Assembly (NCBI RefSeq): GCF_004010195.1
Contig: NC_057731.1
Span: forward strand, 43,678,623 to 43,742,622
DNA length: 64,000 nucleotides
Direction: 5' to 3'
From: Chiloscyllium plagiosum
Lineage: Eukaryota
In this document: piece by piece, positions 4,710-51,200 of the stretch
Layout: each line of letters begins with the position of its first letter
Numbering within the stretch: position 1 is the stretch's first letter
The notes under the pieces: model-generated
The model's input: only the letters and a program-made list of their open reading frames with translations
What the model was told of the DNA's origin: nothing
Database searches by the model: none
Program-made: the position numbers and the translations under genes

Positions 4710-5199
4710 GTGAGTCTCTCTATTTAATGCTTCACTTCTTACCCAGAATAAATGTCACTTTAATGTTCCTGACTGGGAGGAGGGGAAATACTTGAGGTTG
4801 TTCATTAGAATGGGACCAAAGGAAAAACTGGCAGCAGCTGTCCCATAACACAGGAACCAGTGAGGAGAAAAAGGGAAAAAACAGAACAATAGTGACCTCG
4901 AATGCACTGCCTGAAAAGTTGGTGGAAGCAAATTCAATTAAAGCTTTCAAACAGGAATTGAATGTACCTGAAAGAAGGAAATATATTTTCTGGGCAAAGG
5001 GCAGATGGGTCTAAGACCAAGAAAGATACGATGGGCCAAATAGCCTGAGATTCCTTCACTTGATGTGAATGTGAGACACAGCAAATTAAGAAATAGGGAG
5101 CAGGAAACTGCAAACTTAGCTATTGGCATTTTCCATTGACATCATCAAAAGTGTTTTCTAATTTTATATTTCTCAGAGACAGTGTGGAAAATACCCTCA

Positions 5200-5780
5200 G
5201 AGTGAGTGAGGAGAGAGAGAAGTGAAGAGGAACGGAGCTGAGGAATGCAGGAGGTAACAAGGAGAAGCAAGGGAGCAGCGAAGGGGGTGAAGAGAAGGGA
5301 ATAAAGAGTGGGGACATAATGAATAGGAAGGGTTTGGAGGGATATGGGCCGGGTACTGGCAGGTGAGACGAGATTGGGTTGGGATACCTGGTTGGCGTGG
5401 ACACGTTGGACCGAATGGTCTGTTTCTGTACTGCACATCTCTCTCTCTCTCTGATTATAATGAGGAGGACCATTGAGGAATAAGGGAGGTAACAAAGAGA
5501 AGATTCTGAGGGGTGAGGGAGGTGAGGAGGGGAAGTGAAAAGTGAGGGAGATGAGGAGGTGATCGGTGAGGAGGACAAGGCTGAAGAGAAAGAGAGGTGA
5601 GGAGAGAGGAAGATAAGGATGGAAGTGTTAAGAATTGAACGAAGTTAAGAATGAGGGAGAGCGTGAGGAGTGAGGAAGGTGAGGGCAGTGAGTGTGAGGA
5701 GGCGGAAGTGAGGTGGATGAAGGTGAAGAGAAAGGCATGTGATGGGGAGAGGGAGGAGGCTGAGAAAGGTGAGGAGAGAG
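5200..5780. repeat. Purine-rich (GA) low-complexity tract containing a short CR1/HER1 3' fragment (about 5317-5440)
   Basis: GAG/GTGAG-rich degenerate repeats. Confidence 0.6.
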
Positions 5781-18200: not shown

Positions 18201-21200
18201 TGCTGGTCCTGTGTCACATCTGTATTCCTGGGTCTCCTTGTTCAACAGATCCAGAACCAGCCTCCAGGTGCATCAAAGTTGCACAGAATTCATTATGCAT
18301 TATTAATTATGATTATTAATTAATTTTCAGGTACAAAGAACTTCATTTCCTGCAACCACTTCCGTGCAGTTCGATATTTTTCGGAGAGTGTTGTGTCACC
18401 TGATGGTTTTTTGGCCTTTCCCTGTGGCAGTGAGAAAGAGTTTCAGGCAGTAAGTATGAGAGAGGGAGTACGGCTCACTCATCTATACTCCTAGCAGCAT
18501 TTACCAATCAAACTAAATAGCAGGGAACTATAGAGAACCCTTCAACATCAAACTTCAAACAAGCACAACAGGGCTTACGTACAGAGGGAAGATCAATAAG
18601 ATCAGCTGTGAGCAGCTACTCATAGACAACACAGAGAACGCCAAACTAAACAACTCATTACAAATGAGTCCTGATAAAAGAAAAAGCCTCTGAATGATCA
18701 GAAACAGGAAGCTTTACTCAGTATCTACCTCTGGCAGATTGTTATCTGACTGGCAATACACTGGGGAAACTGGGTGCTCTGCAAATGAACTTGGATATTG
18801 GATATCTTTGTGCACAGTAGGCATGCAGGTGCAGTAGGTAGTGAAGAAGGTAAATGATACATTGGCCTTCATAGTGAGAGGATTCGGTATAGGAGGAGGG
18901 ATGTCTTGCTGCAATTATACAGGGTCTTAGTGAGACCACACTTGGAGTATTCTGTGCAACTTTGATCTCCTTATCTGAGGAAGGGTGTTCTGGCTATGGA
19001 GGAGTGCAACAAAGATATACCAGACTAATTCCTGGAATGGCATGTCTAATGAAGAGCTTATGCTCGAAATGTCAACTCTCCTGCTCCTCAGATGCTGCCT
19101 AACCGGCTGTGCTTTTCCAGTGCCACACATTTCGACTCTGATCTCCAGTCCTCGCTTTCTCTATAACAGAACTGAGGTATGAATGGACACTGCAGAGATC
19201 ACTTAGGACTATATTAGGAGCATGAATGAGTCTCTCATAGAAACCTGTGAAATTCTAACAGAAGTAGACAGTATTAACACAGGAAGGGTGTTCTTGATGA
19301 TGAGGGAGGCCAAAACTAGGGGTCACAGTTTAAGGATAGGGGGGGTAGGCCACTTAGAATTTAGATGAAGAGGCATTTATTAACCAAGAGAGTGGTGAGC
19401 CTGCCGCATTCTCTGCCACAGAAAGCAGCTGAGGTCAAAATATTGAATGTTTTCAAGAAGGAGTTAGATACATTTCCTAGGGCTAAGGGGATCAAAGGGT
19501 ATGGGGAGAATGCGGGAACAGTCGAATGATCCGCATGATCATATTGAATGGAAAAGCAGGTTTGAAGGGCTGACTGACCTGCTGCTATTCCTACATTCTA
19601 TTTTCCTATGTGCTGTATCTGTCCAGGGTGCATTTGATGGGGACAGTGTATTTTGTTTCTTTCCATTTAAAAAAGTAGAGTGAGCTTTACTTTGTATCTA
19701 ACCCCATGCTTTCCCTGTCCTGGGAGTGTTTGATGGGGATAGTGTGGAGGCAGCTTTACTCTCCATATACAAGAGTAGAGAAAGCTTTACTCTGTTTCTA
19801 AACATGTGTTGTCCCTATTCTGGGAGTGTTTGATGGGGACAGATTAGAGAGAGCTTTATTCTGTATCTAAATCTGTGCTGTACCTGTCCTGGAGTGTTTG
19901 ATAGCTACAATGTCGAGAGAGCATTACTTTCAGTTTCAAAGAGTTAAGGGAGCTTTAATTTTAGTTTCAAAGAGTCGAGAGACCTTTACTTCAGTTTTAA
20001 AGAGGAGGAAGAGCTTTCAGTTTTAAAAAGTTAGAGAGAGCATTACTTCCAGTTTTAAAAAGTCGAGGAAGCTTTAACCTGTATGTAATCTTGTGCTATA
20101 CCTGTTCTGGGAGTGTTTAATGTGGACAGTGTCAAGGAACTTTAATTTCAGTTTAAGAGAGTAGAGGGAGCTTTCCTCTGTATCTAACCCTACGCTTTGC
20201 TTGCTCTAGGAGTGTTTGGTGGGGACAGTGGTTGCTGCACACTGTTTCCAAGGGAGCTTGAATCATCTGCTGAGGGATCGAATTTGAGGCATTGGGCATT
20301 TTTGCAGTACGTGTGTCAGTCTGTTGAGCTGGATCTTTGCTAACAGTTTGCACAGAGTTCACCGAGAATTTGTGAGAAAAGGAGATGACTGAGTGCTCAA
20401 ATGTAACCTCTCAATCTGTAAAGCAAGAGGAAAAGATGTGGAAAGATTCCTTTCTGCATTGACCAACTATGCCAATTGTTCCACTTTGATCAGTTCAGCT
20501 TTTAGGCTGTATTCCCAGCAATGAGCCCAACTGAAAGGTTCTTTGCTGCCATTGGGTGGTGCCAGTGAGCTATCTGCTACTTCCCGAGCCCTGGTCTAAA
20601 ACACTAAAACTGTTTCTCACTTGCCCTCCAGCGACTCTTCAGCTGTGCTCCATTCTGCTTTGGAAATGTACTCTCTGGATGGGTGGACTGGGAGAATGGT
20701 CTCTTTTGACATCATACAGGGGGATTCACAAAACCAATCCTGCAAAATGGATTATCTCAAATTATTTACTTGAGAACTCCACTTTCCCCCACCCATGGGC
20801 GTCTAGATCCAGGGCTTTCCTGAGACTCTCTGATGGATTGTCAGGCAGTTTGCTGTTGAACGCTGGGCAGTGTGGAGTCTGACAGAATCCCCCGAATACA
20901 GATGCAAGGTCTGCAGACTGATTGGCCATTATCAGGGCCTTTGTCACTAGTATTTGGGCCTTTGTCACTAGTATTTGGGATCGTTCTCTGCACTGGTTCC
21001 TGCACTGTTGGGAGTAAAGCTGATCTCTGATGTAGGTGGCGATGTGAACCTGAAGATTTTCTGTGTGTGTGTTCCAGGAGGAATGCTTTGCATGCCCAGC
21101 TGAAGGCTGTCCAACTATGGGCTACACGATCGGGCCATATCGCCCAGCACCTGGGCTTCTACACCAGACCTTCTACCTTCGAACAGGAGAATCCAGCCCC

Positions 21201-24200: not shown

Positions 24201-26343
24201 AGCCTCGGGCAACTCTCTGTGTGGAGTTTGCACATTCTCCCGGTGTCTGTGTGAGTTTCCTCCGGGTGCTCTGGTTTCCTCCCACAGTCCAAAAATGTGC
24301 AAGTTTGGGGAATTGACCCTGCTAAATTGCCCATAATGTTCAGGGATGCTTAGGTTAGGTGCATTAGTCAGGAGTAAATGTAGAGAAGTGGGTTTGGGTG
24401 GGATACTCTTCGGAGGATCGGTGTGGACTTGTTGGGCCTGTTTCCACACTGCAGGGATTCTTTGAACATTCCAGGTAGTTGGCTTAGTAACAAAAACACA
24501 TTTGGCAAACTATGATGTATTGAAAAATGGGGGCTGGGTCGCCGATTACAGTGGGCAGCTTGGGATGGGTATGGGGGAGGGGAGGGGAGCTGTGCAACGG
24601 CTGTATTTTACATGCAATGTACTCTTCGTTCAAACACACCTAGCCTATGTTGGGAGGGAGCTTGTATCAAGCCTATGCACATTCCTTTATCAAAGTATCC
24701 TTTGTTAATATATTTGTCTTTTTATTAAGTAATAAAGTACCTCATTATAATTCTTGGTGAGGGGATATTCAGTGCATTGGGTCAAACTCTACTTTCGATG
24801 CTCTGCTTTGGGAGCTGCTTCCTGTAGTGACCCAGTTGAAGGATAGGATGCTCCCCACCTAACCCCCTCCCCACCTCCCTCCACCTCCCCCCTCCACCTC
24901 CCCCCCCAACCCCCACCCATCCCATCCCCCACCCCCGATCAGTAACAGGGACACTGAGCAGGAAATGCAGCAGGAGTTTGAGTCAGGGACATTTTACTTT
25001 ATTCCAGAACGAAACTCCATCCAGGCAAAACATATTGGGCGCTCATTGATGCAGAACATGATGTGGGTGATGTTACCAAAGTGAAGTTTCTGTGGAACAA
25101 CAATGTGATCAACATCTTCCAACCCAAGCTCGGAGCTGAGAGCATCACCTTAGTGCGAGCGAAGGACCACACCAGGTCAGTCAGTGCCCAACAATGGATT
25201 CACAGGTGAAGACAGCGAGTGGTAGAATTCACCCAGTAATGACAAGGAGGCTTCTTTATGGGGCAAAAGTGAGGACTGCAGATGCTGGAAACCAGAGTTT
25301 AGATCAGAGTGGTGCTGGAAAAGCACAGCAGGTCAGGCAGCATCTGAAGAGAAGGAAAGAGCAGGCTTCTTTATGGGGGCAAGTGGGGCTTCACTAAGCT
25401 TAGTGACTCCTTTTATAAAATATGCCAGATTCCAAACCACAAACCAATGAAATCCATAATCTTTGCTGACAGAACAGTCAAAGTACACACTGTCAGAGGG
25501 TCAGTACTGAGGAAGTGCCGCACTGTCGGAGGGTCAGTACTGAGGAAGTGCTGCACTGTCAGAGGGTCAGTACTGAGGGAGTGCTGCACTGTCAGAGGGT
25601 CATTACTGAGGCAGTGCCGCACTGTCAGAGGGTCAGTACTGAGGCAGTGCCGCATTGTCAGAGGGTCAGTGCTGAGGGAGTTCTGCATTGTCAGAGGGTC
25701 AGTACTGGGGAAGTGCCGCACTGTCAGGGGGTCAGTACTGAGGGAGTGCCGCACTTTCAGAGGGTCAGTACTGAGGGAGTGCCGCACTGTCAGAGGGTCA
25801 GTACTGAGGGAGTGCCGCACTTTCAGAGGTCAGTACTAAGGGCGTGCCGCACTGTCAGAGGGTCAGTACTGAGGGAATACTGCACAATTGAAGGGTCAGT
25901 ACTGAAAGAATGCTGCACTGTTGAAGGCACAGTATTGAGGGAGTCCTGCACTATCAAAGGGTCAGTACTGAGGGAGCATTGCACTATCAGAGGGTCAATG
26001 TTGAGGGAATTTTGCACTGTTGGTGAATTTTGATGGTCATGCTTATAAGAGGGTATTAGGGAGCATATTTGGATAGAGTTTAGATACTGATTAAACAATA
26101 TTTAATTGACCAATAGAATAACATCGAGAGGCGCAATGTTCTTGGGTTCCTAATTGTAAAGTGGAAGGCAGGGATAAAATGGGATGAATGAAATGCTAAC
26201 GTAACTTTCCCAAATTTGATTTTCACAGTCTTATACAAACTTTGTAATGCCTGTTCCTTATTTTTCCTGATAGTTTCCGTTTTTGTGGGAATGAGATGGT
26301 TAAAGAGGAGACTCTGCAAACTCTCACTCCCTGCACCTCGTAG
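6185..26343 (+). CDS. Pancreatic triacylglycerol lipase family gene (PNLIP/PNLIPRP-like), 12 coding exons, 470 aa
   Basis: Exons 6185-6233, 7542-7696, 11200-11325, 12608-12742, 13478-13586, 14125-14244, 16005-16124, 18331-18449, 21078-21207, 22432-22543, 25008-25175, 26274-26343. All junctions are GT-AG with consistent phase (1413 nt). Encodes a signal peptide, GHSLG, GLDP, CNH triad, lid and PLAT domain. The exact paralogue cannot be assigned by eye. Confidence 0.95.
6487..6793 (+). mobile_element. HE1-type tRNA-derived V-SINE with a duplicated 18-bp head
   Basis: A/B-box-like head, V-domain TGTGTGGAGTTTGCAC...GGTTTCCTCCC, (TCTAA)n tail; GGGGGCGGCACGGTGGCA occurs twice at 6487-6522. Confidence 0.85.
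6858..7170 (+). repeat. Degenerate dispersed satellite (AGAGTAAAGCTCCCTCTACACTGTCCCCATCAAACACTCCCAGGACAGG type)
   Basis: Several diverged units; the same family occurs at 19610-20230 (-) and about 27385-27485. Confidence 0.6.
7542..7696 (+). CDS. Lipase coding exon 2 ([12 protein letters not shown]...[24 protein letters not shown])
   Basis: Typical pancreatic lipase N-terminus; gaag| and |GTAGGG junctions. Confidence 0.93.
7770..8140 (+). mobile_element. HER1/CR1 LINE 3' fragment
   Basis: ACTAGAGGGCATAGGTTTAAGGTGAGAGG...CTCTGTGACT, shared with many copies in the window. Confidence 0.7.
8570..10775 (+). mobile_element. Nested repeat stack: a LINE fragment (8570-8765, resuming about 10320) interrupted by a short PLE-derived element, an antisense CR1 (about 8875-9350) and a Penelope 3' fragment
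   Basis: The outer LINE sequence is colinear across the insertions and matches the family at 63680-64000. Confidence 0.55.
9456..10123 (+). mobile_element. Penelope-like element 3' fragment with a GIY-YIG endonuclease remnant
   Basis: Translates to [19 protein letters not shown] and [13 protein letters not shown]; ends in a terminal repeat with a mutated hammerhead core (9992-10025); contains an assembly gap at 9809-9830. Confidence 0.8.
11200..11325 (+). CDS. Lipase coding exon 3 ([15 protein letters not shown]...[20 protein letters not shown])
   Basis: HG[F/Y] beta5-loop motif; tttag| and |GTGAGA junctions. Confidence 0.93.
11316..11725 (+). repeat. Degenerate ~24-bp minisatellite (TGTGCAAGGTGTGAGCTGGGGAAG) beginning at the exon 3 donor
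   Basis: Repeated units are visible directly. Confidence 0.7.
11917..12290 (+). mobile_element. HER1/CR1 LINE 3' fragment
   Basis: Very similar to 54890-55243; tail CTATGACTCT. Confidence 0.8.
12608..12742 (+). CDS. Lipase coding exon 4 ([19 protein letters not shown]...[17 protein letters not shown])
   Basis: VNCICVDW motif; taag| and |GTGAGT junctions. Confidence 0.95.
13478..13586 (+). CDS. Lipase coding exon 5 with the catalytic Ser (GHSLG, Ser codon 13523-13525)
   Basis: [26 protein letters not shown]; cag| and |GTAATT junctions. Confidence 0.96.
14125..14244 (+). CDS. Lipase coding exon 6 with the catalytic Asp ([32 protein letters not shown])
   Basis: Family motifs; cag| and |GTAAGT junctions. 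Confidence 0.96.
14476..14607 (-). mobile_element. Short PLE-derived element with an intact hammerhead core (14571-14606)
   Basis: On -: ATTC-CTGAGGA-A-GGGC-TTAT-GCCC-GAAAC-GTC-GATT; flanked by an ATGGGATACT duplication. Confidence 0.6.
14955..15575 (-). mobile_element. Probable solo LTR
   Basis: TGTTA...TGACA termini, about 620 bp, TATA-like and AATAAA motifs on -, imperfect 4-bp flank duplication (TGGC/AGGC). Confidence 0.5.
16005..16124 (+). CDS. Lipase coding exon 7 ([40 protein letters not shown])
   Basis: GHxDFYPNGG motif and start of the lid; cag| and |GTAAGT junctions. Confidence 0.96.
16262..16965 (-). mobile_element. HER1/CR1 LINE 3' fragment with a nested short PLE-derived element (16830-16945)
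   Basis: The ORF at 16611-16823 resembles a CR1 ORF2 C-terminus ([24 protein letters not shown]); the nested element has a TATTCCAAAAGTGG duplication at 16816-16829 and 16946-16959. Confidence 0.8.
18331..18449 (+). CDS. Lipase coding exon 8 with the catalytic His ([21 protein letters not shown]...[11 protein letters not shown])
   Basis: CNH motif (His codon 18357-18359); ttcag| and |GTAAGT junctions. Confidence 0.95.
18700..19610 (+). mobile_element. CR1-clade LINE 3' fragment with a nested PLE-derived piece (about 19045-19160)
   Basis: Degenerate LVRPHLEY-type ORF2 coding and a CR1 3' end. Confidence 0.65.
19610..20230 (-). repeat. Dispersed satellite array (same family as 6858-7170)
   Basis: Repeated CTGGGAGTGTTTGATGGGGACAGTGTAGAGGGAGCTTTACTCTGTATCTAAC units. 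Confidence 0.7.
21078..21207 (+). CDS. Lipase coding exon 9 ([16 protein letters not shown]...[13 protein letters not shown])
   Basis: CFxCPxxGCPxMG motif; cag| and |GTGAGC junctions. Confidence 0.95.
21340..21725. repeat. C-rich degenerate tandem repeat (CCCTCACTCCCTCAGCCCTCACACTAC)
   Basis: Visible periodicity. Confidence 0.7.
21761..22069 (-). mobile_element. HE1-type SINE
   Basis: Reverse complement of the 6487-6793 family with a (TTAGA)n tail. Confidence 0.85.
22432..22543 (+). CDS. Lipase coding exon 10 ([37 protein letters not shown]), start of the PLAT domain
   Basis: WRYxVSVTLSG motif; cag| and |GTAAGT junctions. Confidence 0.95.
22850..23660 (-). mobile_element. CR1-clade LINE fragment
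   Basis: The ORF at 23308-23493 contains [28 protein letters not shown]. Confidence 0.8.
23662..23919 (-). mobile_element. HE1-type SINE (internally deleted)
   Basis: Head and tail match the family. Confidence 0.75.
24131..24461 (+). mobile_element. HE1-type SINE
   Basis: Head, V-domain and tail match the family. Confidence 0.8.
25008..25175 (+). CDS. Lipase coding exon 11 ([55 protein letters not shown])
   Basis: [15 protein letters not shown] motif; cag| and |GTCAGT junctions. Confidence 0.95.
25488..26022 (+). repeat. 33-bp minisatellite (CACTGTCAGAGGGTCAGTACTGAGGGAGTGCCG), about 16 copies
   Basis: Direct tandem units without spacers. Confidence 0.95.
26274..26343 (+). CDS. Lipase terminal coding exon ([23 protein letters not shown])
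   Basis: FxFC...V.E..LQTL.PC C-terminal motif; tag| acceptor; TAG stop at 26341-26343. Confidence 0.93.
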
Positions 26344-26708: not shown

Positions 26709-26809
26709 TTTTAAAAAAAGGCAACTTGCTCGTTGACTAATTTAATCTTTCTACAGAAATTCAAAAGGCAGCGAATGAACAGATAACACAGAACTACAGG
26801 AGCACTGGC

Positions 26810-27250
26810 CAATTGTCCAGTGGGAATGAATGGGAAAGGATCTGTCTCCAATGGGATTGTGCACAGTGGGAATAAATGGGAATGGGCTTGTATCTATTGG
26901 GATTGTGTACAGTGGGAATGAACAGGAATGGGCTCGTGTCCATTGGGATTGTGTACAGTGGGAATGAACAGGAATGGGCTCGTGTCCATTTGGATTGTGT
27001 ACAGTGGGAATAAACAGGAATGGACTTGTGTCCATTGGGATTGTGTACAGTGGGAATAAACAGGAATGGACTTGTGTCCATTGGGATTGTGTACAGTGGA
27101 AATGAATAGGAATGGTTTGTGTCCATTGGGATTGCGTACAGTGGGAATGAAGGGATTGGGATTTGTGTCCATTGGGATTGTTACTGCACGAGTGAAGGAA
27201 ATGGGTTTTGTCCATGGGGGTTTTACTACTGGTGAAATGGAGTTCAATTC
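26810..27250 (+). repeat. 46-bp minisatellite (CATTGGGATTGTGTACAGTGGGAATGAACAGGAATGGGCTCGTGTC), about 9 copies
   Basis: Unit starts at 26941, 26987 and 27033 give a period of 46. Confidence 0.9.
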
Positions 27251-28479
27251 TGTGTAATGGGAGTTGGCAGTTGTACTTGGAATTCACAACTGGTGCTGAT
27301 GAAAATAGACTTTTCAAAGTGAGCTTTGAAGCGTGATAGAATACCACATGTTCAATACAGCATGATGAAACCACAGTCCACCAAACACTGTCAGGGCAGA
27401 TATGGCATGGGGTTAGATACAGAGTAAAGCTCCCTCAACTCTTTTAAATTGAAAGTAAAGCTCTTGCTACACTTCCATTAAACATGTAAACATTTAGGGC
27501 AGGAAGCGTTAACTGTGATCATGCTGGACAAAGGCTGAGACTGACATATCAGGATAATGAGCTGTTTTTGAGGAGATTCTCAGTGTGAGATTTACGATAG
27601 TCAAGAGTGAGAACATGTTGAAATGCGAATGAATATAGTTTTAATGCTCTGTTTATTTTTGAAAATGACTATTTTGAAAGTTAATGAAATCTGTAACTGA
27701 TACAGTGGATCTGTCAACATGTGGCCGCTATGGAGTGTGAAAAAATGAGTGAATGAGGGAATGGCAGAGGGAGAAGTTGAGAGCATCTAGAAATGTACGA
27801 GCTTGCGAGACAGAAAGGGGCAACTGTTGGGAAGAGAATAAACAAGGACAAAGTAGACAGAGAGAAGAGAGAGTGAGGGAGAAAGAGATAGAAAGAAAGC
27901 CAGAGAGACAGGCAAATAGACAAGAAGACATAAGGTTAGGACCTTCTACAGGCCCATCACAGGAAGCAAGGCAGGAGTTGAGCCCATTTGCCTGGCAGTG
28001 GGAGAGGGGCATGATGTTCCAGAGGAAATCAATGCGTTTTCCTCCCCCAGGGCAGTTATCAAAAATGAGCAGGACAAGAGCTGGCGAGCGAATCAGAGGG
28101 AGAAGCCACAAGAGGGTGGGGTCTTGGGGGAGGATGCATGATGCTGTTGATGCCCCTCAGGCAGTTTTGTTCAGGGATATCTGGGTTAATTAGATACGCG
28201 ATCGGTGGGAATGGTACTGGTTATGGAATGTAGGGAGCTCAATTGCTGCAGGAATGGACATTGCCACTGATGTCACCATCAATGCCCACCTGACTGGGCT
28301 GTGGAGGTTTACCACTGGGGACCACTAGGAGGCTGCCCAGGAAGGCTGGGTTGGGGTTGGGGGCAGCAAAGGTGGGAGATGGTGGCAGTGAAGGTGGGAA
28401 GTGGGTTTAGGGACAGTGGGGATGATAATGTCAGAGTGGGATTGGAGGGGCTGATGGTGTTGGAGGTCATTCTCTGCAC

Positions 28480-28945
28480 TCACCTTCCCCTCCCCTTACC
28501 CTCCCCTCACCCTCCCCTTATTCTCCCCTTACCATTCCCTCGCCCATCCCTCACCTTCCCTTTACCTTCCCCTCACCCTCCCCTCACACTCCCCTCACAC
28601 TCCCCTCGCTCTCCCCTCACCCTCCCCTCACACTCTCCTCACACTCCCCTCGCCCTTCCCTCGCCCTCCCCTCACCCTCTCCTCGCCCTCCCCTTGCNNN
28701 NNNNNNNNNNNNNNNNNNNNNNNNNNNNNNNNNNNNNNNNNNNNNNNNNNNNNNNNNNNNNNNNNNNNNNNNNNNNNNNNNNNNNNNNNNNNNNNNNNNN
28801 NNNNNNNNNNNNNNNNNNNNNNNNNNNNNNNNNNNNNNNNNNNNNNNNNNNNNNNNNCCTCCCCTCCCCCTCACCCTCCCCTCGCCCTTGCCCTCCCCTG
28901 CACTCCCCTTGCCTTTCTCTCTCCTCACCCTCCCCTCCCCACACT
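28480..28945. repeat. C/T-rich low-complexity tract spanning the assembly gap 28698-28857
   Basis: CCCTC repeats and an N run. Confidence 0.8.
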
Positions 28946-30227
28946 CAGCATTGTCCAACACCCAAGGGAGTGAAAGATAAAGTGAATGCGACACAAAGAG
29001 GAGAGAGAAATAGATGACAGAAAGACAGAAATAGAGGAGTGTGAAAAACATGAGTCACATCCCACCTACCCTGGAGTATCTCGGTGAAACCCATGTTAGA
29101 CATATCCAATGGGCAAGTTTGGACACTCATATTCCCCAGGATCATCGACCCTCAAACCCTGATTTTCGACAGGCACTGTGAGTTTGATGAATGTGTGGCT
29201 GGTCTTTCTGAATGGGGTTACCTGATACAGGATTTTCTATAAATACCTCTGCCTCAGACTGGCTGTCTCCCAGAATGAACTGACCTTTTAAAAGCTTTTT
29301 AAGTAACAGGCCCGCTCTATGTAGTATCCTTCAGCAGTTATTTTAAGGTGTGTAGTGGTGAGTGAGGGTGCAGAAGTTTAATCTATTCTCTCTGCCATTT
29401 AGACAAAAATTAATTATTAATAAGGAGCCAATCAGCCTCTGAGAGAGAGAGGGAGCGATGATGCTGGGGGAATTAAATCTTGCGTGGCTTTGAATTTTCT
29501 GTTTCCTTCCCTCCTTAAGGCTCTGACGTGGCTCGGTGTGAGTCCCCGACCCTTCCAGCAGTTAATCTGCTTCCATTGTCCCTCACTTTGTATTTGTGAG
29601 GAAGTGTGTTGATTCAGGGATGAGGGGCTCGGAGAAGCTGGAATTGTTCTCCTTAGAAGGAGGGTATTGAACTGAGGAATTAAAATTAAAGGACAGTGTT
29701 TTAACAGAGTAAATAATGCAAAACTGTTTCCAGCAGAAAGACGGTCAGTAATGAGAGGGACGCAAATTGAAGAGAATCTGCCAATTGACCAGAGGGAGAG
29801 AATGAAAGAATGTTTACTGACAGCACAGGAATGCATTGCCTGGAAGGACAATGGAGACAGATTGATTGGTGACTTTCAAAAAAGAATTGAATAAACATTC
29901 AGAATCATAGAATAGTTACAGCAGGGCCCTCCCAACTATGGATGAGTACCCTGAGCGGGTTGGAGTGCTGAACCTTTTGGATTGTGGGTTCTGAGACAGC
30001 AATTGCACATGTCGAATTCCCGCTGAGAGTTCAAAGCTGTGTTGGCCCTTTAAATTGTCTGTGTTTTTTATACGGTGTGTGTGTGGCTGAACACAGAGTG
30101 AAATAACTCAATAGAGGCCGGTATCCCATCACCAAGTCACTCTTTATTTACATGAGGAGAGCCTTTGGCACTAATCCAGCTCTCTCAAAGCCAGCTCTCA
30201 GAGTGAGCAGAGCCTCAAACACTCCTG

Positions 30228-30735
30228 ATTGTTTTTTCTTTTTATTTTCACCCACACTACAGCCTGACAGTGGTAATGCTTATTTTTCCCCATGTCGTGT
30301 GTGTGCACGTGTCGGACACAGTGAAAAACAACAAGTGTATAAATTTTTAATTGTATTTCCCCACCAGGAAGAAAGGAAACACCCGAGTGGGCAGTGACAA
30401 GCAGTGCCCTTCTCAAACAATAAAGGGGAGGCAAGGATGAAATTAAAATGGAGTCGGAGGAGGAAATAATACACTCCAGTCCTTGTGGTGCCCACCTTTC
30501 CCTGAAAACCTCAAGGGTGTTGGTAGACCCTGCGTGCTCCGTCTGCAGGGAAACGTGGTGTCTGACATAACCATGGAACAGGAGCAGGCAAGAGGCCCTA
30601 ATGACCCCCTCCACAGCCCACTGCCTGGACCCGTTTATGGCCAGTTTGACCAGGCCCAGGAGCAGACCCATGAGGAGGTCCTCTGACCTACCCTCCTTCC
30701 CCCCACATCCCCCACCACCCACCCCGCACCAGGTG
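30228..30735 (-). mobile_element. Tx1-clade non-LTR retrotransposon 3' fragment (copy A) in the 3' LTR
   Basis: ORF2 C-terminus (LLGLVKLAINGSRQ...FRERWAPQG), 3' stem-loop, A-rich tail, ACTCCTG duplication at 30221-30227 and 30736-30742. Confidence 0.8.
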
Positions 30736-31245
30736 ACTCCTGTCTATATCTGTCAGCCAGCACTCCCTAAATGGACCAGATTAACAGCCCCAATCAGAGA
30801 ACTCATATTGTATGAGGTCCATCTGGCTGACCTCATTACAATCTCTACATCCCTCCCCCTCTGAGTTCGAGGACAAAGGCTGGTTTTTTTGTAGCTCCTC
30901 CTGGGGTGATGTAGCACCAGGTCAGGTTCTTCGAACTCTGCCTCAGATATGGGTGGAATATACCACCCAGTAGCTCGTCTGTTGTGCTCAGAGCATCCTG
31001 GCAGAAAATAATTCTCTTCTTCAAGCAGCAAAGGCATCAAAGTGGCAACGTAGAGTCATAGAGCTGTACAGTTGGGAAATCGGCTGTGTCCATCTCAGAT
31101 CCCCAGGTATCTTCAACGTTGATGGAGAGGGAGAACTCACGGATTCCAGAATGAGTTGTGAAGCCTGTCGAGGAGCCGGGCAGGTTTTGCTCCCCGCACC
31201 GTTTGTGAGGTTACAGACTCTATACGGTCTGCATTCATATTCAGA

Positions 31246-31419
31246 ATTAGATTGGATTAGATTACTTACAGTGTGGAAACAGGCCCTTCGGCCCAACAAG
31301 TCCACACCGACCCTCCGAAGAGCAACCCACCCAGACCCATTCCCCTACATTTACCCCTTCACCTAACATTACGGACAATTTAGCATGGCCAATTCACCTA
31401 TCCTGCACATTTTTGGATC
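31246..31419 (-). mobile_element. HE1-type SINE 3' half nested in the Gypsy element
   Basis: (TTAGA)n tail and family match. Confidence 0.8.
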
Positions 31420-34400
31420 TTCGCACTTACTCGAACGTTATACATCACTGGATCTAACCTTGCCTTGACCATCCCTCTTACCAATGCAGGGTCATTCCAA
31501 TGTTTCCTACACCAAACTTTGTCCCCCGAAGTAAACTGTCTCTCTCGTATTGTGTATGGCATTGATGTTTCTGATGCTAATTCACTCTCTACCCCAGGCC
31601 TGGGAAGATCAGATTTAATTTGGTGTGGAGACTGCTCCCCATTAGCAACTCTGCAAGAGCTATCCCTCTGATCGAATGAGTGATGGTCCTACAATCCAAT
31701 AGGAATTAGGACAGTTTGGCTCCGGGTGAAGCTATAGGCTGTTTCTTTAAGCCTGCCTTCAAAGTTTGGACTGCTTTTGTTGCCAGACCATTGGATGATG
31801 GATGGTTTCGAGCTGTCCTTATTTTTTTTTGGTGTTTAGATTAGAGTGGTGCTGGAAAAGCACAGCAGGTCAGACAACATCTGAGGAGCAGGAAAATCGA
31901 CATTTTGGGCAAAAGCCCTTCATCAGGAATGGAGGCAGAGAGCCTCCAGGGTGGAGAGCTAAATGGGGCTATCCTTATATGTCAAGTGCCATTTAACTTT
32001 CAGAAATACTCTAAATCCCTGTTGGTAAACGATGGCTCATTATTTGTGATGAACATTTCCGGAGTCTGTGTGTTGAGAAGATGTGCACGATTTTTCTATC
32101 ATTGTCCCCATTTCATGAATCAACTCTAGGCACGACCAGCCACTTTGAATGGGTGTCCACAATGACTAAGAACATTGAGTCCATGAAAGGACCTGTATGG
32201 TTGGCGTGTAACTGAGTCCAGGGTTTACCTGGTCAATCCCATGAATGTGGGCAAGCTGCTGATGGAAAGTTTTGTCCTTGTTGGCACTCTGGGCACTGCC
32301 AAAGCAATGCAGTGACGTCAGCATCCAATCCTGGCCACCTGACATAACTTCTTGCCAATATCTTTGTTTTAAAAACCCCTGGGTGACCCTGGTGGAGTTT
32401 AGCCAGTATCTGGCAGCAACCTTTGCCTGGAAATATCACTCTTGCTCCCCAGAATAATATGCTGTTCTCTCCAGTGATCTGCTCTCTCCAGGTACAGAAA
32501 GGTTTCAGTTCTGGTTGTGACAGTCCTTCAGTTTCCCCCATCACCACCAGCTTTTTCAGTTTTGCCCAGACTGGATTTTCTGCATCCAAAGACTGATATT
32601 GTCAGTTGTCACTGAAAGTGTGTCTTGAAAATTTGAAACCAGAATAGAGGCGGTCCCACCAGTGGTGTATCTGCCAGCGGGAGGTGTCTTAATGTATTTG
32701 TTACACAGCCTCCCGGGCGGTTTTCCATCTTGTAATTATACACACTTAGTATTCGAGCTGAATCTGGCATTCCTGAAACAGCACTGCCTTGTCCTCTTTC
32801 AGTTGACCTAGCTGTGGTTTTTGGTTTGTTATTATTACAAATCTACATCCATAAAGGTTTTGGTGGAATTCCTGACTCCAAATATGACTGCCAAACCTTC
32901 CTTCTCCATCTGGGCTTATTTATGCTCCGCATTAGTCAAAATCCTGGATGCCTACACTATTGGATATTTCTCTCCATTGGGCCACTATGATCTAATACTA
33001 CCCTAATGCCGTACGGGGTGGTATTGCATGTCAATACCAGATCTCATTTGGGATCATAGTGTGTCAACACCTTAGAGGGTGATAGCTGTTTCGTCATTTC
33101 ACTGAAAGCTTTGGCTTGGCTATATGACCAGCTCCAAGGCTGACCCTTTTTAAGGACTGATACAAAGATGCCAGGATGGAGTCGAGGTTATGTATGAATT
33201 TTCTGTAATAATTTACCAGCCCAGAGAAAGACCTAAGGCCTCACTCTTTCTTTCAACACATGTAACCCAGTCTTGTAACTCTGTAGCCCAGTTAGATCAT
33301 TTTACTGCCTGAAACAAACATTTTTCCATCTAAGGCATACACGCGCCTGGGGGAAAGGACTATGTTCAAACTCTCTAAGTGCTCCTTATTGGTCTTCCCT
33401 GTTATTAGCACGTCATTTAGATAAATGGCAACCTCGGGTAGACTTTGTAAAATGTTTTCCATTGTCCATTGAAAAATTGCACGGGCTGATAGTACCTCAA
33501 ATAACAGTCTTATATATTGGTACAAACTTTTATGGGTATTAATTGTAGCATTACTGGTCGCATACTTCTGGGAATCTTCATCTAACTGCCATTATAAGTA
33601 TGCATGGCTCATGTCCAGCTTTGTGAAGGACAAATTGCTGCCAGTGTTGCATATAAATCCTTTATGTGTGGGATTGAGTATTTATCCAGCTGTAAAAGTG
33701 GTTCACTGTTTGTTTAAAATCCCCATAAAGGCAAACTGAGCCATCAGGCTTCACAATTGGTGTGACAGGTGCTGCCCATTCGATAAACTGGACTAGTTCG
33801 ATGATTCCTTCGCTTTCCAGCCACCTGATTTCTGCCTCTACCTTTTTCCCATAAGGCAAATGGCATTGCGCGGGCCTTGCAGAATCATGGAATTGCTTCC
33901 TGGTCAACATGCAGGGTGGCCATGGATTCTTTGATAGTTCCCTAGCCCTTTCTTAAAAGCGTCTGGGTATTTAATCAGGACTTCACTCAAGCAGCCATTT
34001 TCTAATTGCAAACTGTTGAGCCAAACCAGGTGCATCTTTCTCAACCAATTTCACTCCATCAAGCTCGGGCCTGTGCCTTTTCCTACATTCAGTGGGAACT
34101 GAACCAGCTGCTTCTCCTAAGAGATTGGAGTGAAAGTTATACCCATAATCTGTAAAAGTTCCCCAATATAGATTCTCAGTTTAGCCTAGATCTTGCACAA
34201 ACTTAAGGGGTTGGAGTCCAGAACGAAGTTTGTTAAAAACTGGTTCGCGATCACTGAAACAGTCGTGTCAGTATCGACCTCCGTTAGAACCAGGTGTCTC
34301 TTTAATCAGAGGTTAGTTTTGATTGGATGTTGCGAAGCAATTTAACTATTCCAAAACAGATGTAGATGGACATTGCAGGGTGTGCACTCTCCTGAATATA

Positions 34401-35470
34401 GGTCTATGAGTTCTCTTACTCAGTTTTGATTTAATGACACTCTTTTGCTGTCTCGAGTCCGCATACCGGCAGCAACTACAATGGCTTGCTGGCCCAGATC
34501 CTGAAGAAAGTTTTAATGGTTTGGCTGAAGCTTGGCTTTATTTAGGGTTTTGCTGTGTCCCTCTGTTCAGGATATGTCCTGAGCGAGGCTATGCAATTGC
34601 CTTCATTCATGTGGTGTTCCCCAAGCTCAGTCGGATTGGCCAGGGTGTTCACTTCCATCGGAATATCCTGCAAGACATATGCTCCACTTGCTGCATTTTC
34701 CAGATAAAGCCAGTTGTAGTGCCTGTTTGAAGTCCAGTTAGGCTTCAGCTAGTCGGCATTTTTGCGTGGTTACATCATTAACTCCACGTACCGAATGGTC
34801 TCTCAGCATCGCATTATGGTTAAACTAAAGTCACATGCATCTGCCTGGGTCTTAACCTAATCACAATAACCTGGTTCTCGAAATGTTGAATAAAACCAAT
34901 AGTATCCCAGAATTAGAAGAAGCTTGGGGTCATAATATTTCTTAACTAAATCCTTCAACTCTTGAAAACTTTTAAAATCTGGTCCACTCAGGGATAGTCA
35001 GACTTCTAATAACTGAAAAAGCTGTGGGTCCACAAGCTGTCAGGAGAGTTACTCGTTGTTTTTCATCTGCCCCAATGTCATTTGCCCAGAAACAAAAGCA
35101 TTCTTTCCACATACTGGGTCTTCAAAGGCAGGAGTGAACGAGTTAAGCGTCCCAAACAATGGCATGATGCCAGAATGCTCACCCCAACTCAAAGACCACT
35201 GTTGCGAATGAATTCCTTCATTTTCTCTCATCGCCACTGAAGTAACTCCACAGAGGCTGGTATCCCGTCACCAAGTCACTCTTTATTTACACATGAGGAG
35301 ACCTTGACACTGACCCAACTTCCTCAGAGCCAGCTCTCAGAGGAAACAGGATGTCCGACACTCCAGTTTATTTTTATGTCACCCTTTATTTACACATGGA
35401 GGGTCTTTGACGTCGATTCAGCTCCCACAGAGCCTCCTCTCAGAGTGGAAGGGATGTCTGAAACTCCTAG

Positions 35471-36227
35471 TTTTTTTAATGTTTACTTTTTTTTCCTTTT
35501 TTTTAAAACCCCCACACTACCGCCGAACCGCAGTAGTGCTTATCCTTTTCCCACAGCAGCCATGGTGTGTGTGTGCAGGTGTGAGACACAGTGAAAGACA
35601 CAAGGTGCACGAATCTTTATTCAAATTTCCACCACCAGGAAGAAGGAAACACCCGAGTGGCCAGTGACAAGCAGTGCCCTTCACAAAAGGCAATGCTGTG
35701 TGATCAAACAGTGAAGGGGAGGGCAGGGACAAAATCAAAATAGAGTTGGAGGGGGAAATAATGGACTCCACTCCCTGCAGAGCCCACCTCTCCCTGAACA
35801 ACTCCAGGGTGTTGGTGGACACCGCTTGCTCCTTCTCCAAGGACACCCGGGCTCTAACGTAACCGCGGAAGAGGGGCAGGCAGTCAGCCCTAACGATGCC
35901 CTCCACGGCCCACTCCCTGGACCTGTTTATGGCCAGTTTGGCCAGGCCCAGGAGCAGACCCACAAGGAGGTCTTCAGACCTCCCTTCCTTCCTCCGTACT
36001 GGGTGCCCGAAGATCAGGAGTGTGGGACTGAAGTGCAACCAAAAGCAGAGGAGGAGGTTTTTCAGAAAGTCAAAAAGAGAGTGCAAACGCCCACACCCAA
36101 TATACACGTGGTCCACAGACTCTACAACGCCACAGAACAAGCATTTGGGCTGGGGGTCCGTGAACCACCGCAATCTGCAGTTGCAGGGGACTGCTGCGTG
36201 CAGCACCCTCCACCCCAGATCCCCAAT
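35471..36227 (-). mobile_element. Tx1-clade 3' fragment (copy B) in the 5' LTR
   Basis: Open ORF with GDLGWRVLH and a CCHC knuckle CLFCGVVESVDHVYIGC; poly-A tail. Confidence 0.85.
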
Positions 36228-36294
36228 ATTCCTGTTTAATTTTTTTTTCTTCACTCCAGTTTATCTTTTCTTTTTCTTTTCAAGGCTCCTGTAT

Positions 36295-37049
36295 ATTTTT
36301 TCTTTTTTTTTTCTTTTTTTAATATATTAACCCCCACACTACCACCTAAGTGCGGTAGTGCTTATTTTTCCCCAGCACCCATGGTGTGTGTGTGTAGGTG
36401 TAGACACAGTGAGAGACACAAGGTGCACAAATCTTTATTCAATTTCCACCACCAGGAAGATAGGAAAACACCCGGGTGGCCAGTGACAAACACTGCCCTT
36501 CACATCAAAGGGCAGTGCTGTGTGATCAAAACAGTGAAGGGGAGGGCAGGGACTAAATCCAATAGAGTTGGAGGGAGAAATGATGCACTCCACTCCCTGT
36601 GGCGCCCACCTCTCCCTGAACAACTCCAGGGTGTTGGTGGACACCGCGTGCTCCTTCTCCAAGGGCACCCGGGCTCTAACGTAACCGCGGAAGAGGGGCA
36701 GGCAGTCGGCCCTAACGACCCTCTCCACGGCCCGCTGCCTGGACCTGTTGATGGCCAGTTTAGCCAGGCCCTGGAGCAGACCCACGAGGAGGTCTTCAGA
36801 CCTGCCCTCCCTCCTCCGTACCGGGTGCCTGAAGATCAGGAGCGTGGGACTGAAGTGCAACCAAAAGCAGAGGAGGAGGTTTTTCAGAAAATCAAAAAGG
36901 GAGTGCAAACGCCCACACCCAATATACACGTGGTCCACAGACTCCACAGTGCCACAGAACAAGCAGTTGGGCTGCGAGTCCGTGAACCACCGCAATCTGC
37001 GGTTGCAGGGGACCGCTGCATGCAGCACCCTCCACCCCAGATCCCCAAT
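36295..37049 (-). mobile_element. Tx1-clade 3' fragment (copy C), in tandem with copy B
   Basis: Same ORF (CLFCGTVESVDHVYIGC), hairpin CACTACC...GGTAGTG, poly-A tail. Confidence 0.85.
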
Positions 37050-37189
37050 ATTCCTGTTTAATTTTATTTTCTTCACTCCAGTTTATTTCTGTCAGCCAGG
37101 TCTCTCAGACTGGACCAGATTAACAGCCCCAGTCGGGTCTCACTATAGTGAGACCTGAAGTTTTTTATTTAATCAGGGCATATAGGCAA

Positions 37190-48200: not shown

Positions 48201-51200
48201 ATAGATGATCTGATTGAAATATATAGGATTCTTATGGGGGCTTGACAGGGTACATGCTGAGAGGATGTTTCCCCTCATGTGCGTGTCTATGACTAGAGGA
48301 CATAGTCTCAGAATAAAGGGGCACCAATTTAAAACTGAGTTGAGGAGGTATTTCTTGTCCTGGAGGATTGTGAGTCTTTGGAACTCCTCGCCACAGAGAA
48401 CTGTGGGGCCATAGTCCTTGCATATATTTAAGGCTGAGATAAATAGATTCTTGATTAGTTGGGGATCAAGGGCGATGGGGAAAGAGCAGGAAAGTGGACA
48501 TGATGAATGTCTGATCAGACATTATGAATGATAGGGCAGGTTCAAAGGGCCAAATGGCCAACTCCTATTTCTTATGGTCTACGGTCTTATGGTCTAAGAC
48601 AAAAACAACTTGTGTTTACATAGTACCCAAAACATCCCAAGATTCTTAAAAGAGGGTGATGGAACAAAATACCGTATAGGGAGACATTGGGTCAGGTGAT
48701 CAATAGCTTGGTCAAAGAAGTGAATCTTAAGAGCGATAGACAATCGAGAGGCAGGAGGAATTTAAGGAGGCAATTCCAGGGTTTGAGATGGAGGCACAGC
48801 CAATGGTGCAGCATTACACTCCAGGAAGTTCAAGAGGCCACACTGAGAGCACACAGAGGTCCCAGAGGATTGTAGGACTGGAGGTGATGACAGAGAAAGG
48901 GAGGGGAGAGGCCATTGGAAGATTGCAATACAGAGATGAGAACTTTAAATGTCAGGTTTTGGTGGATGGAAGGTACTCAGTGAGGACAGAAACCAAAAAG
49001 GAGAAAGTGAGGACTGCAGATGCTGGAGATCAGAGCTGAAAATGTGTTGCTGGAAAAGCGCAGCAGGTCAGGCAGCATCCAGGGAACAGGAGAATCGATG
49101 TTTCGGGCATAAGCTACAAGATAAGAGCCCACAGTATTGGAGGTAGTACATTGGCACGGATAGAGAATTGGCCTATGGGCTTATGCCCGAAACGTCGATT
49201 CTCCTGTTCCCTGGATGCTGCCTGACCTGCTGCGCTTTTCCAGCAACACATTTTCAGCACAGAAACCAAAAACACATGCAGAGGGTATGTGGACCAAAGT
49301 GCGGAAAGAGAAGTTACAAAAAAGCAGCAAATTTGAGAAGGTTGTACTGGAGATTAAGAAGCTACAGGACAGCAAGGATTCATGCACTGTGGCCAAGATG
49401 ATGGGAACATCCTAAGCAGTCCCTTTCATTTAGCTTGGAAATACTGAGCACCTACCAATAACACTGACCAATCAAGAGATGGTGGGAGAGGTGGGACAGC
49501 TCTGAAGTTAGAAGTACAATAGAATGATAGGATGATACAACATGAAGAGAGACCACTTGGTCCATCTTTGAAGAGGTAACCACACAATGCCAACAAAGCC
49601 TGGCTGTCAATCAGCATTAATAGGTGCAATCTCCATAGCAACACCTCTGACTTACAGAATTCCCTGGACAATCAATCAGCACTGTCATGCAGTATAAATT
49701 TTGGACATCTCCTTAAATGGCTATTCTTGCAGATCGTCCTGATAAGTTGAGGACAGAAAATCTTCCAGAAAATGTGTCCTTTCTCAGCAATACTTGAGAA
49801 CAATTGGGTTAGTCACAGTCTTTCTCCTGTAACCCCCCGAAACTGCTCCTCTTCAGATATTTCCTCAATTACTTCTTGAAAGTTATGATTGAATCTGCTT
49901 CTTGCTCCTGGGTGAAAAGGTTTCCTGGTGAATTTCTTGTAAAACATTGAGTAGACAGATTGGATTCAGTCCTATTACATTGTGTTAACCTTACTGGAAC
50001 ACTGGAGGAGCCTGAAGTCAGGGTGGGGGAGTGGGAACAAATATTTACAGAGTGGTGGCTTCCACCAAAATTAATTTCAAGTTACCAGTTGCTTAGCGAA
50101 TGTAGAGGAGACAGGGACAGCTGGATGATACCAATTTTTTTTATGATCATCTTCCTTCTTGTTTATTCAACTAATATTTACAAGAAATTTAATTCCCTGC
50201 CCCAGACTCAAGCTATTGCATTATTAATGTGATTGAGAGATTGATCCTATCCAAGGACTTTCAGAATTCCCAGATTCGGGGTAAGGTTACATTGGAAAAA
50301 TGTTCCGGAAGAGCTTCACACAGAGACAGAGGCACAGGACAGGAGGGAGAGAGATCCTTACACAAGGGTAGAGAGACTTGCATACACAGGGACAGGACCC
50401 TCACAAACAGGGAGAGAGACCCTCACACTCAGGGAGAGAGATTGCCACACTCAAAGACCAAAGTCTTATCAACACTCAAAAGGGACAGTGACCTTCATAA
50501 GCATGCACATGTTTATTGGGACAGAGCCCTCAAAGAGACAAATACTCACACACCCTCTTAGACACCCTGACAGACACACACATGCTCACAGACACAACAA
50601 CATCCACTCACAGACAGATAGGCTCCCTAACAGAATGACAGACACTCATACAGATTCACACACACATCCTAACAGACTGACACACCCCTTGCAGACACAC
50701 ACACCTTTTCACAGACACACACATACCCGCATAGAGACAGACACAAATCCTCACAGACACACACCCTCACAGACATCTACATCCTGACAGACACACGCAC
50801 ACCCCTGCACAGACACTCATACATCCTTACAGACATACACATCCTCACAGACATACACCTCTTCTCAGACACGCAAACACAAATCCCCACACATACACAA
50901 TCTCTTGGACACACATATACTCATGAATCCTCACAGACACACATAGAGATTTGCATATAAACAGGGACATATTACTTTTCTGTATTTAATGTCACCTATC
51001 TTAAACACATACACCTCCATTTAATTGCTACTCTGCAATTTCTATTTTGTCACAATTTATAAAAGATCCCAATGTTAGTTTCTCCCACCTGATACTCTGC
51101 AATATTGGAGTTTTGCTCTTTAATTTGTCTCTGTTTGTTTGCAAATTTCTGGCCCCAAGTTCACAGCACACTGCCATTCCAATTTAGTGTTTGTAAATTT

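Follow-up and report, generated by a model that had tools for sequence, protein, structure and literature searches.

A Tx1L-lineage LINE with an insertion preference for one site of a Gypsy long terminal repeat in the shark Chiloscyllium plagiosum

The stretch of DNA analysed here, hereafter called the window, comprises 64,000 nucleotides of Chiloscyllium plagiosum (assembly GCF_004010195.1, NC_057731.1, positions 43,678,623 to 43,742,622 of the forward strand; contig C22 of the 3.56-Gb genome examined). On its minus strand, at 30099-37134, it holds a decayed Gypsy element, both long terminal repeats (LTRs) of which are interrupted by fragments of a long interspersed nuclear element (LINE) of the Tx1 clade. 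Throughout the genome this LINE, a member of the lineage of Xenopus Tx1L, inserts abundantly and preferentially at one site of the Gypsy LTR.

Results

Tx1 fragments in both LTRs of a Gypsy element

The three Tx1 fragments A, B and C each lie between a left and a right half of an LTR, at the identical position and in the identical orientation (Table 1), as the initial annotation had proposed and as both the coordinates and the matches between the LTR halves bear out. These halves pair up as 30099-30236 with 35238-35375 and 30736-30795 with 37075-37134 (local matches), and in local alignments the two LTRs agree at about 80% of positions (104/129 and 64/82). Since copies B and C are 90.6% alike, the LTR pair is indeed more diverged than the two Tx1 copies. 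The annotated difference in 5' truncation likewise holds between A (near reference position 500) and B/C (both at 722), but not for B and C as separate truncation events: the two have an identical 5' end and agree over the next ~41-44 bases, and are therefore not the products of two independent truncations, while their tails and 3' parts differ. Both carry the zf-RVT end of open reading frame (ORF) 2, and copy C ends in a significant 3'-terminal stem-loop (36330-36375, z -3.3). Neither this common junction nor the likely nature of the target site as a TATA box was part of the initial annotation.

The motif copies annotated beside the fragments are all present, within one base of where they had been placed (30221, 30736, 35360, 35464, 36228, 36253, 36285, 37050 and 37075). 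Seven of the nine are followed by a T-tract and the remaining two (30736 and 37075) start the right half of an LTR. The annotation had likened them to tail-only insertions; the stretch 35378-35472 before the motif at 35464 also carries LTR sequence. The LTR-derived piece at 35378..35507 is likely a retrotransposed RNA piece of the LTR, and pieces resembling this tailed segment occur in other arrays too. From their departures from the commonest base (17.7%, 5.9% and 2.6% for A, B and C), three insertion ages can be concluded. The outer end of the 5' LTR is lost; if both LTRs belong to one element, all three fragments were inserted after the integration of Gypsy.

Table 1. Features of the interrupted Gypsy element and its Tx1 fragments (positions in the window).
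Feature	Position	Strand	Description
Gypsy 3' LTR, downstream (R-U5-like) half	30099..30228	-	AATAAA 78 nt from target site; left target copy (30221) at end
Tx1 copy A with A-tail	30229..30735 (Tx1 part 30251-~30735)	-	17.7% from commonest base; 5'-truncated near reference position 500
Gypsy 3' LTR, upstream (U3-like) half	30736..30849	-	Right target copy, TATA-like GATATAGAC, CCAAT-type boxes
Polypurine tract	30850-30861	-	Adjoins upstream half of 3' LTR
Gypsy internal region	30850..35237	-	Decayed, many stops, insertions of short interspersed elements (SINEs); domain pieces and primer-binding-like site
Integrase zinc-binding piece	32236-32601	-	In Gypsy internal region; PF17921, E 3.6e-11
Reverse transcriptase (RT) piece	33295-33591	-	In Gypsy internal region; PF00078, E 0.0013, below cut-off
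Primer-binding-like TGGCGATGAG	35227-35236	-	In Gypsy internal region, next to 5' LTR
Gypsy 5' LTR, downstream half	35238..35370	-	Ends with outermost target copy (35360) and T-tract
Tailed piece of LTR downstream-half sequence, then tail of copy B	35378..35507	-	75% like local LTR; target copy 35464
Tx1 copy B	35508..36224	-	ORF2 C-terminus with zf-RVT and 3' untranslated region (UTR); 5.9% from commonest base
Three target-site copies, T-tract after each	36225..36329	.	Positions 36228, 36253, 36285
Tx1 copy C	36330..37046	-	2.6% from commonest base, youngest; 5' end as in B
5' junction common to B and C	37047..37074	.	Target copy 37050 and T-tract
Gypsy 5' LTR, upstream half	37075..37134	-	Regenerated target, TATA-like GAAATAAAC; broken off at small palindrome

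The target element shows the features of Ty3/Gypsy, namely two LTRs with TG...CA ends, a primer-binding site, a polypurine tract and RT before integrase. Two homologue searches with short pieces of the element that were to place it in a Gypsy clade returned no match; its short LTR and its primer site may be Mag-like. An empty LTR of the family is ~236 bp long, and the family comprises ~15,000-22,000 copies or ~0.1-0.15% of the genome, a rough estimate from 3/33 and 7/33 exact matches. The upstream half of the 5' LTR breaks off at a 26-bp palindrome (37133-37158).

Insertion at the LTR site throughout the genome

A 23-base pattern from the Tx1 3' end has 3415 exact matches in the genome, its control none. 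The DNA around the first 100 of these matches, taken in order along contig C1, yielded 64 array rows, two of which are probably the ends of one array with the gap between them outside the retrieved DNA. By script, 37 of the 64 lie at the LTR site, flanked there by an LTR half on one side or both, and 39 after two rows had been re-called; 25 lie elsewhere, and one 24-base non-LTR copy was overlooked by the script. Counted from the last unit, the LTR half restarts at -1 to +11 bases in 29 of 33 arrays. The flanks are thus not random or merely T-rich, the outcome that would have spoken against the annotated preference. With these counts the family exceeds the threshold for target specificity given in the covered sections of Kojima 2015 (PMC4494074), that is, one sequence type in >20% of flanks.

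In two samples that are biased by their selection, 13 of the 27 young copies most like C (6 undecided) and 16 of the 28 old copies most like A (3 undecided) lie at the LTR, and the latter figure indicates that the preference is old. The best relatives of copy A are 75-82% alike, and none of the 28 has A's junction.

Seen from the side of the target, 33 of the first 40 LTR sites on C1 (exact 21-mer matches) are without Tx1, and the seven filled ones have target duplications and differ in their junctions and truncations. Tx1 is therefore no fixed part of the LTR with a single junction, and hitchhiking with the LTR is excluded by the empty sites and the varied junctions.

The target site and its sequence requirement

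In the Gypsy sense the target site reads GATATAAACAGGAGT, and Tx1 is inserted in sense to the LTR just behind a TATA-like box. CCAAT-type boxes lie upstream and AATAAA 78 bases downstream, as in an LTR promoter; judged from its sequence, the site is likely the TATA box of the LTR. Among the 57 arrays of which both ends were visible, target duplications were called in 35, and 32 of these measure 10-17 bp. The duplicated block ends in T's and is mostly followed by A, with CCTGTTT^ATATC at the LTR and TT^A/G elsewhere.

A preference for the nine-base motif TCCTGTTTA as such can be ruled out, as it occurs 61,965 times in the genome, far beyond what the LTR family supplies, and as 15 of the 16 sites outside the LTR show at least three differences from it, in the manner of random TT^R sequence. 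At the LTR, 18 of 19 sites differ at no more than two bases. Since LTR sites fit the 9-mer and non-LTR sites do not, recognition must need a longer context or another cue. The 12-mer of the site has 5296 matches (control 665), and 27 of 30 sampled matches are LTR sites; an exact 12-mer outside LTRs was met in two of the 30, both empty and too few to judge occupancy. At three of 16 non-LTR sites, a TATA-like word is accompanied by ATTGG at a distance of 20-60 nt, a weak excess over the background of 5.5% (p 0.054).

Two side observations concern sites other than the usual one. The right flanks of L023, L025, L057/L059, L082 and L087 look like a different repeat, in which a TATA-like word occurs together with a pair of ATTGG boxes and which is possibly a second promoter-bearing family. 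In L091, an array sits at the outer end of an LTR in opposite orientation, and to the right of its Tx1 piece ending at 3106 (oriented) follows a stretch that may resemble reversed 5S rRNA.

Structure and kinship of the Tx1 element

The full element, recovered by walking outward from the window fragments to natural genomic copies, is a LINE of ~7.5 kb with an apurinic/apyrimidinic endonuclease (APE) and an RT, represented by the near-full-length copies L161, L162, L174 and L178, in all of which the frames are broken. Domain searches detected the endonuclease (PF03372, E 3.3e-12 in L165), the RT (PF00078, E 1.5e-37 in L177) and, below the cut-off, a zinc-binding domain (PF13966, E 9e-5 in L176), and tblastn matches span Tx1L residues 1 to ~1290 in pieces. 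In L165, the endonuclease domain lies in a frame free of stops (4762-5697, minus strand). The ~3 kb upstream of ORF2, where an ORF1 would be expected, contain broken frames with a knuckle-like word, CHLCREVGHIRKNC, and have no Pfam match. As is usual in the Tx1 clade, insertions carry A-tails, variable 5' truncations and target-site duplications. Most sampled copies have diverged little compared to the target in the window, with a median of 4% from the commonest base against ~20% between the window LTRs.

Among named relatives, ORF2 of Xenopus Tx1L comes closest to the RT piece (63% identity). The RT tree, which is midpoint-rooted, comprises 29 rows, 28 of them hand-picked from the 120 matches listed, and its rows include neither an L1 outgroup nor any identified as Keno, Kibi or Koshi. 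In it the element falls into a 100/100 clade of nine rows with Tx1L and proteins from turtle, sturgeon and stingray, its sister being the stingray protein (98/97); one alligator protein, of an unnamed family, lies in the clade without Tx1L. Reconstruction and phylogeny hence confirm the annotated assignment to Tx1 and specify it as the lineage of Tx1L.

Two copies deviate in structure. The near-full-length L164 has an internal duplication of ~3 kb across the ORF1-ORF2 boundary, and in L165, at ~8200-8300 (oriented), a Tx1 subfamily that is more distant and has another 5' UTR carries a leader matching the LTR-like 5' end of the non-coding passenger described below.

Stacks of copies with common 5' junctions

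The clusters of exact 3' ends on C1 are each in a single orientation. Among 563 units from 167 loci, a common 5' end was found in 208 of 1213 pairs within a locus compared to 1004 of 119,513 pairs (0.84%) between loci, and 56 of 98 arrays contain such a shared end, against a mean of 9.8 and a maximum of 18 in shuffles. Long pairs with a shared 5' end differ by at least 3% in their 3' part in 49 of 59 cases, and a twin of the 3' part exists in the array for only six of these 49, from which we conclude that most are not plain duplicates. Up to 10 nt from the junction, rare bases are shared at 6 of 488 sites, compared to 3 of 3460 in the between-locus control, and shared rare bases cluster in the last 10-30 bases before it.

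In 54 of 72 arrays (p 2.6e-5), the unit on the tail side has more rare bases than the unit on the TATA side, and the window agrees with this polarity (B, on the tail side, 5.9%; C, on the TATA side, 2.6%). As the tail-side unit is the older one, new copies are likely added at the regenerated site, towards the TATA side. Each new copy likely often inherits the 5' junction of its neighbour. Truncation hotspots lie near 33, 174-199 and 248, and hairpins may underlie them; a second hairpin was not significant (z -1.6), compared to z -3.3 for the 3'-terminal stem-loop.

Leaders, a passenger element and transcription

In the 30 loci that best match the 5' end of one copy, the 5' UTR runs into the element's own 3' UTR at position 131-139 (26/30 by BLAST, 30/30 on reading), and this 3' UTR leader piece ends before AATAAA at ~position 105-110. 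An unselected list contains the 3' UTR leader in 11 rows and LTR sequence up to the target site in three. In L166, L170, L173 and L179, the leader consists of the LTR sequence that follows directly after the TATA-like box.

A second element of ~1.9 kb, with 2540 candidates at first look, is likely a passenger of the Tx1 LINE; it lacks a long frame and does not itself match Tx1L. It inserts at the same LTR site and in the same direction in 9 of 27 cases by script (13 undecided), its 5' end resembles the LTR sequence behind the TATA box, and some full-length copies show duplications of ~40 bp by eye. Copies such as L230:1501-3380, L213, L222 and L233 are A-tailed with internal repeats and form tandem arrays of their own as well as arrays mixed with Tx1 stacks. 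The passenger itself contains a secondary hotspot, GGCATTCCTTTT^AGTG, which is used at L053/L054, L028, L012 and L071.

Tailed or duplicated sequence of the LTR downstream half together with Gypsy sequence next to the primer site was seen at the target in L125:1419-1812 and L069, possibly representing either long duplications of the target or 5' parts of Gypsy transcripts that the machinery of the LINE had inserted. The possible duplications measure 151 bp in L069 and 123 bp at a non-LTR site in L037. Moreover, 15 of 25 non-LTR array rows contain an LTR-site-like word before an internal T-run, some with adjoining LTR sequence, which, with a weak control, suggests that donor copies sit at LTR sites.

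In one polyA RNA run, the Tx1 3' end is covered on one strand at a depth of ~730-815 versus 9-32, reads that could stem from internal priming at genomic A-tracts, and a second run from the same sample has none. Of the indexed records with this sequence, none is listed as RNA.

Other repeats in the window

The window also holds closely spaced inverted pairs of short interspersed repeats at 1953-2312 and 49030-49263 (135 nt, 96%, and 85 nt, 96%) and minisatellites at 25433-26086 (33 bp), 26768-27181 (46 bp), 28466-28705 (11 bp) and 19656-20241 (period ~100 bp).

Discussion

Since the Tx1 family lies at a single LTR position in more than half of the sampled arrays and builds stacks with common truncation points there, the question arises how both habits are brought about. 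From our point of view, they are probably best explained together by a preference for the TATA site that results from reading by the endonuclease, and by head-to-tail stacks in which the junction is inherited. The endonuclease would recognise an extended sequence of more than nine bases, and a first nick on the T-rich strand would prime reverse transcription at the A-tail. With the duplication of the target, the TATA side keeps an intact site, and it is there that the younger unit is found. On the next round, the second-strand overhang would terminate in the final bases of the copy before, and pairing of the complementary DNA (cDNA) there would impose the same stop point. Full-length copies start either with LTR sequence from past the TATA box or with part of their own 3' UTR, AATAAA not included. 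Such donors might be transcribed from the interrupted LTR promoter, their leader offering a handle for pairing by which promoter and leader are rebuilt whenever a full-length copy is inserted, a weaker step that we regard as possible rather than probable.

Several observations, however, weigh against this explanation. With 25 of the 64 arrays elsewhere and at no fixed motif, the enzyme is not strictly specific, and automatic calling of duplications worked in only 35 of 57 arrays. The role of the endonuclease is argued by analogy with Tx1L, and in the shark enzyme the beta5-beta6 hairpin loop has three residues fewer than in Tx1L. With regard to the stacks, the excess of similarity near the junction is modest (4.7% versus 6.3% divergence, 24 versus 13 loci, p 0.016) and the control leans the same way (7.5% versus 8.2%). 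An end is shared with the immediate neighbour in 69 of 342 units and with any older unit in 121, while 82 extend past the end of their neighbour. Eight of the 59 shared-end pairs are less than 2% apart and may represent plain duplications, and some arrays repeat blocks of several units (L032, L086 and L095). As the leader loci were chosen by their match to one 5' end, the ratio of leader types is biased. Lastly, a transcription start in the LTR was not seen as a pile-up of read ends in one polyA single-cell run, a 3'-biased library and hence a poor test, and the single-cell depth is ~130-158 upstream of the TATA box compared to ~40-68 downstream.

These points bear on several other explanations. 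Those concerning the stacks would be accounted for if the shared 5' ends arose from unequal crossover, gene conversion or slippage at the DNA level after independent insertions, with the targeting itself being real; the eight nearly identical pairs, the block repeats and the shallow gradient of similarity would all fit. For 43 of the 49 divergent pairs, however, the array holds no twin of the 3' part, two-unit arrays including B/C differ in their tails and 3' variants, and a 54:18 polarity in age is not expected from crossover, so that we consider such an origin unlikely, if far from negligible. The targeting could also be achieved by RNA-DNA pairing, in which a donor RNA extends beyond its A-tract as far as the duplicated LTR site, its end pairs with the nicked strand and loose nicks at TT^A become productive mainly at the LTR. 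Generic TT^R sequences at the non-LTR sites and the LTR-site-like words in 15 of 25 non-LTR array rows point in this direction, as do the R1 transcripts with flanking target sequence reported in the covered sections of PMC2718515. Yet the control for the word count is contaminated, the word also occurring in 14 of 86 flank T-runs, and a further tail follows the carried words, so that there was no primer pairing in those events; altogether, we regard pairing as a decidedly improbable basis of the preference.

It could further be imagined that the TATA-binding protein (TBP), the pre-initiation complex or open chromatin tethers the LINE to TATA promoters in general, the LTR merely being the commonest of them. 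The nick does fall inside a TATA-like box, three of 16 non-LTR sites have the TATA-like word with ATTGG (p 0.054 against 5.5% background), and L023, L025 and one C1 site resemble a second promoter-like repeat. Most non-LTR sites nevertheless have no such box, LTRs with a damaged TATA word are still used (8 of 19 differ from the 9-mer at two bases), and the targets are decayed LTRs, ~20% diverged and unlikely to be all active, which together makes tethering very improbable. That the Tx1 piece would belong permanently to some LTR subfamily and hitchhike with it, or match by chance in T-rich DNA, is hardly conceivable: B and C do have a common junction, but Tx1 is absent from 33 of 40 LTR sites, the filled ones vary in truncation and have duplications, A is in one window LTR only and B/C in the other, and most Tx1 copies (median 4%) are far less diverged than these LTRs. 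Both possibilities were rejected on the grounds of the empty sites, the 39 of 64 arrays at the LTR and the 3415 versus 0 pattern matches.

Building on endonuclease-driven targeting with inherited junctions, one could speculate that a LINE without a promoter of its own captures the LTR promoter and that leader pairing rebuilds the promoter-leader unit and stamps one truncation on each stack. The leaders and the passenger would fit such a capture, the use of the LTR promoter being predicted from its sequence motifs; we put this forward tentatively and consider it doubtful. Equally doubtful is the related idea that the element carries at its front what followed the TATA box at the donor locus, at first LTR sequence and later, as sites were filled, its own 3' UTR with the polyA signal missing. 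If promoter capture were true, the passenger would take the same route and Gypsy LTR promoters would be disrupted as a side effect.

Among the closest known systems is Tx1L of Xenopus laevis (UniRef YTX2), with 63-65% RT identity, the 100/100 clade and an ORF2 of APE, RT and zinc finger in common. According to the covered parts of PMC1950540, it likewise targets one site of another transposon, the DNA transposon Tx1D, and the specificity of its endonuclease has been linked to a hairpin loop. In contrast to Tx1L, which targets a piggyBac-type element, the shark element uses a TATA-like site of an LTR, is loose in its specificity (~39% elsewhere), has a hairpin loop three residues shorter and without RDGH, and forms large truncated stacks, its leader being taken either from the target or from the 3' UTR of the element itself. 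A preference for LTR retrotransposons, as in the shark element, is described in the covered sections of Kojima 2015 (PMC4494074) for the crocodilian families Tx1-8_Crp and Tx1-4_AMi. These were grouped with Keno and Tx1-Mar, whereas the shark element, compared with them by description, groups with Tx1L, so that the LTR habit likely arose separately. Within their target, the crocodilian families may also sit at a TATA site.

The passenger has a parallel in SINEU-3, which together with Tx1-Mar uses Mariner-N4_AMi as a target; there too a non-autonomous element shares the site and tandem insertions sandwich the target duplication, as far as covered in PMC4494074. SINEU-3 has a head of small nuclear RNA (snRNA), whereas the shark passenger is a 1.9-kb non-coding element with an LTR-like 5' end. 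Stacking resembles that of R1 in Drosophila, for which the covered sections of PMC2718515 describe tandem arrays by insertion into the 14-bp duplication that borders an earlier copy on its 5' side and, in some lineages, transcripts whose 5' end carries target sequence that anneals and gives precise junctions. R1 differs in belonging to another clade and in its target, 28S ribosomal DNA (rDNA); identical R1 junctions in D. melanogaster were ascribed to amplification of one event, and truncation points common to independent tandem copies are not described in those sections (PMC2718515).

A literature search, with limited coverage of subscription papers and Repbase reports, returned no paper on Tx1 with Gypsy, on a shark Tx1 at a TATA box or on a LINE at the TATA box of an LTR promoter. 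The preference of Tx1 families for other transposons, LTR elements included, is known in print. Consequently, where the initial annotation had suggested an undescribed family specialised on an LTR retrotransposon, the preference for the LTR holds and exclusivity does not, and "undescribed" applies to the family and not to the habit.

Overall, the present study adds a core-promoter site to the targets of the Tx1L lineage and describes a transposon that occupies about one in six of the LTR sites sampled from another. Its thousands of dated and ordered stacks are a natural record of second-strand priming in target-primed reverse transcription, which is still an open step. Both the inherited truncation points and the leaders derived from the target lend themselves to direct counting, and they favour pairing of the cDNA with the cleaved target. 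The endonucleases of Tx1L and of the shark element, with their different targets and the shorter recognition loop of the latter, represent a ready pair for studies of how specificity shifts.

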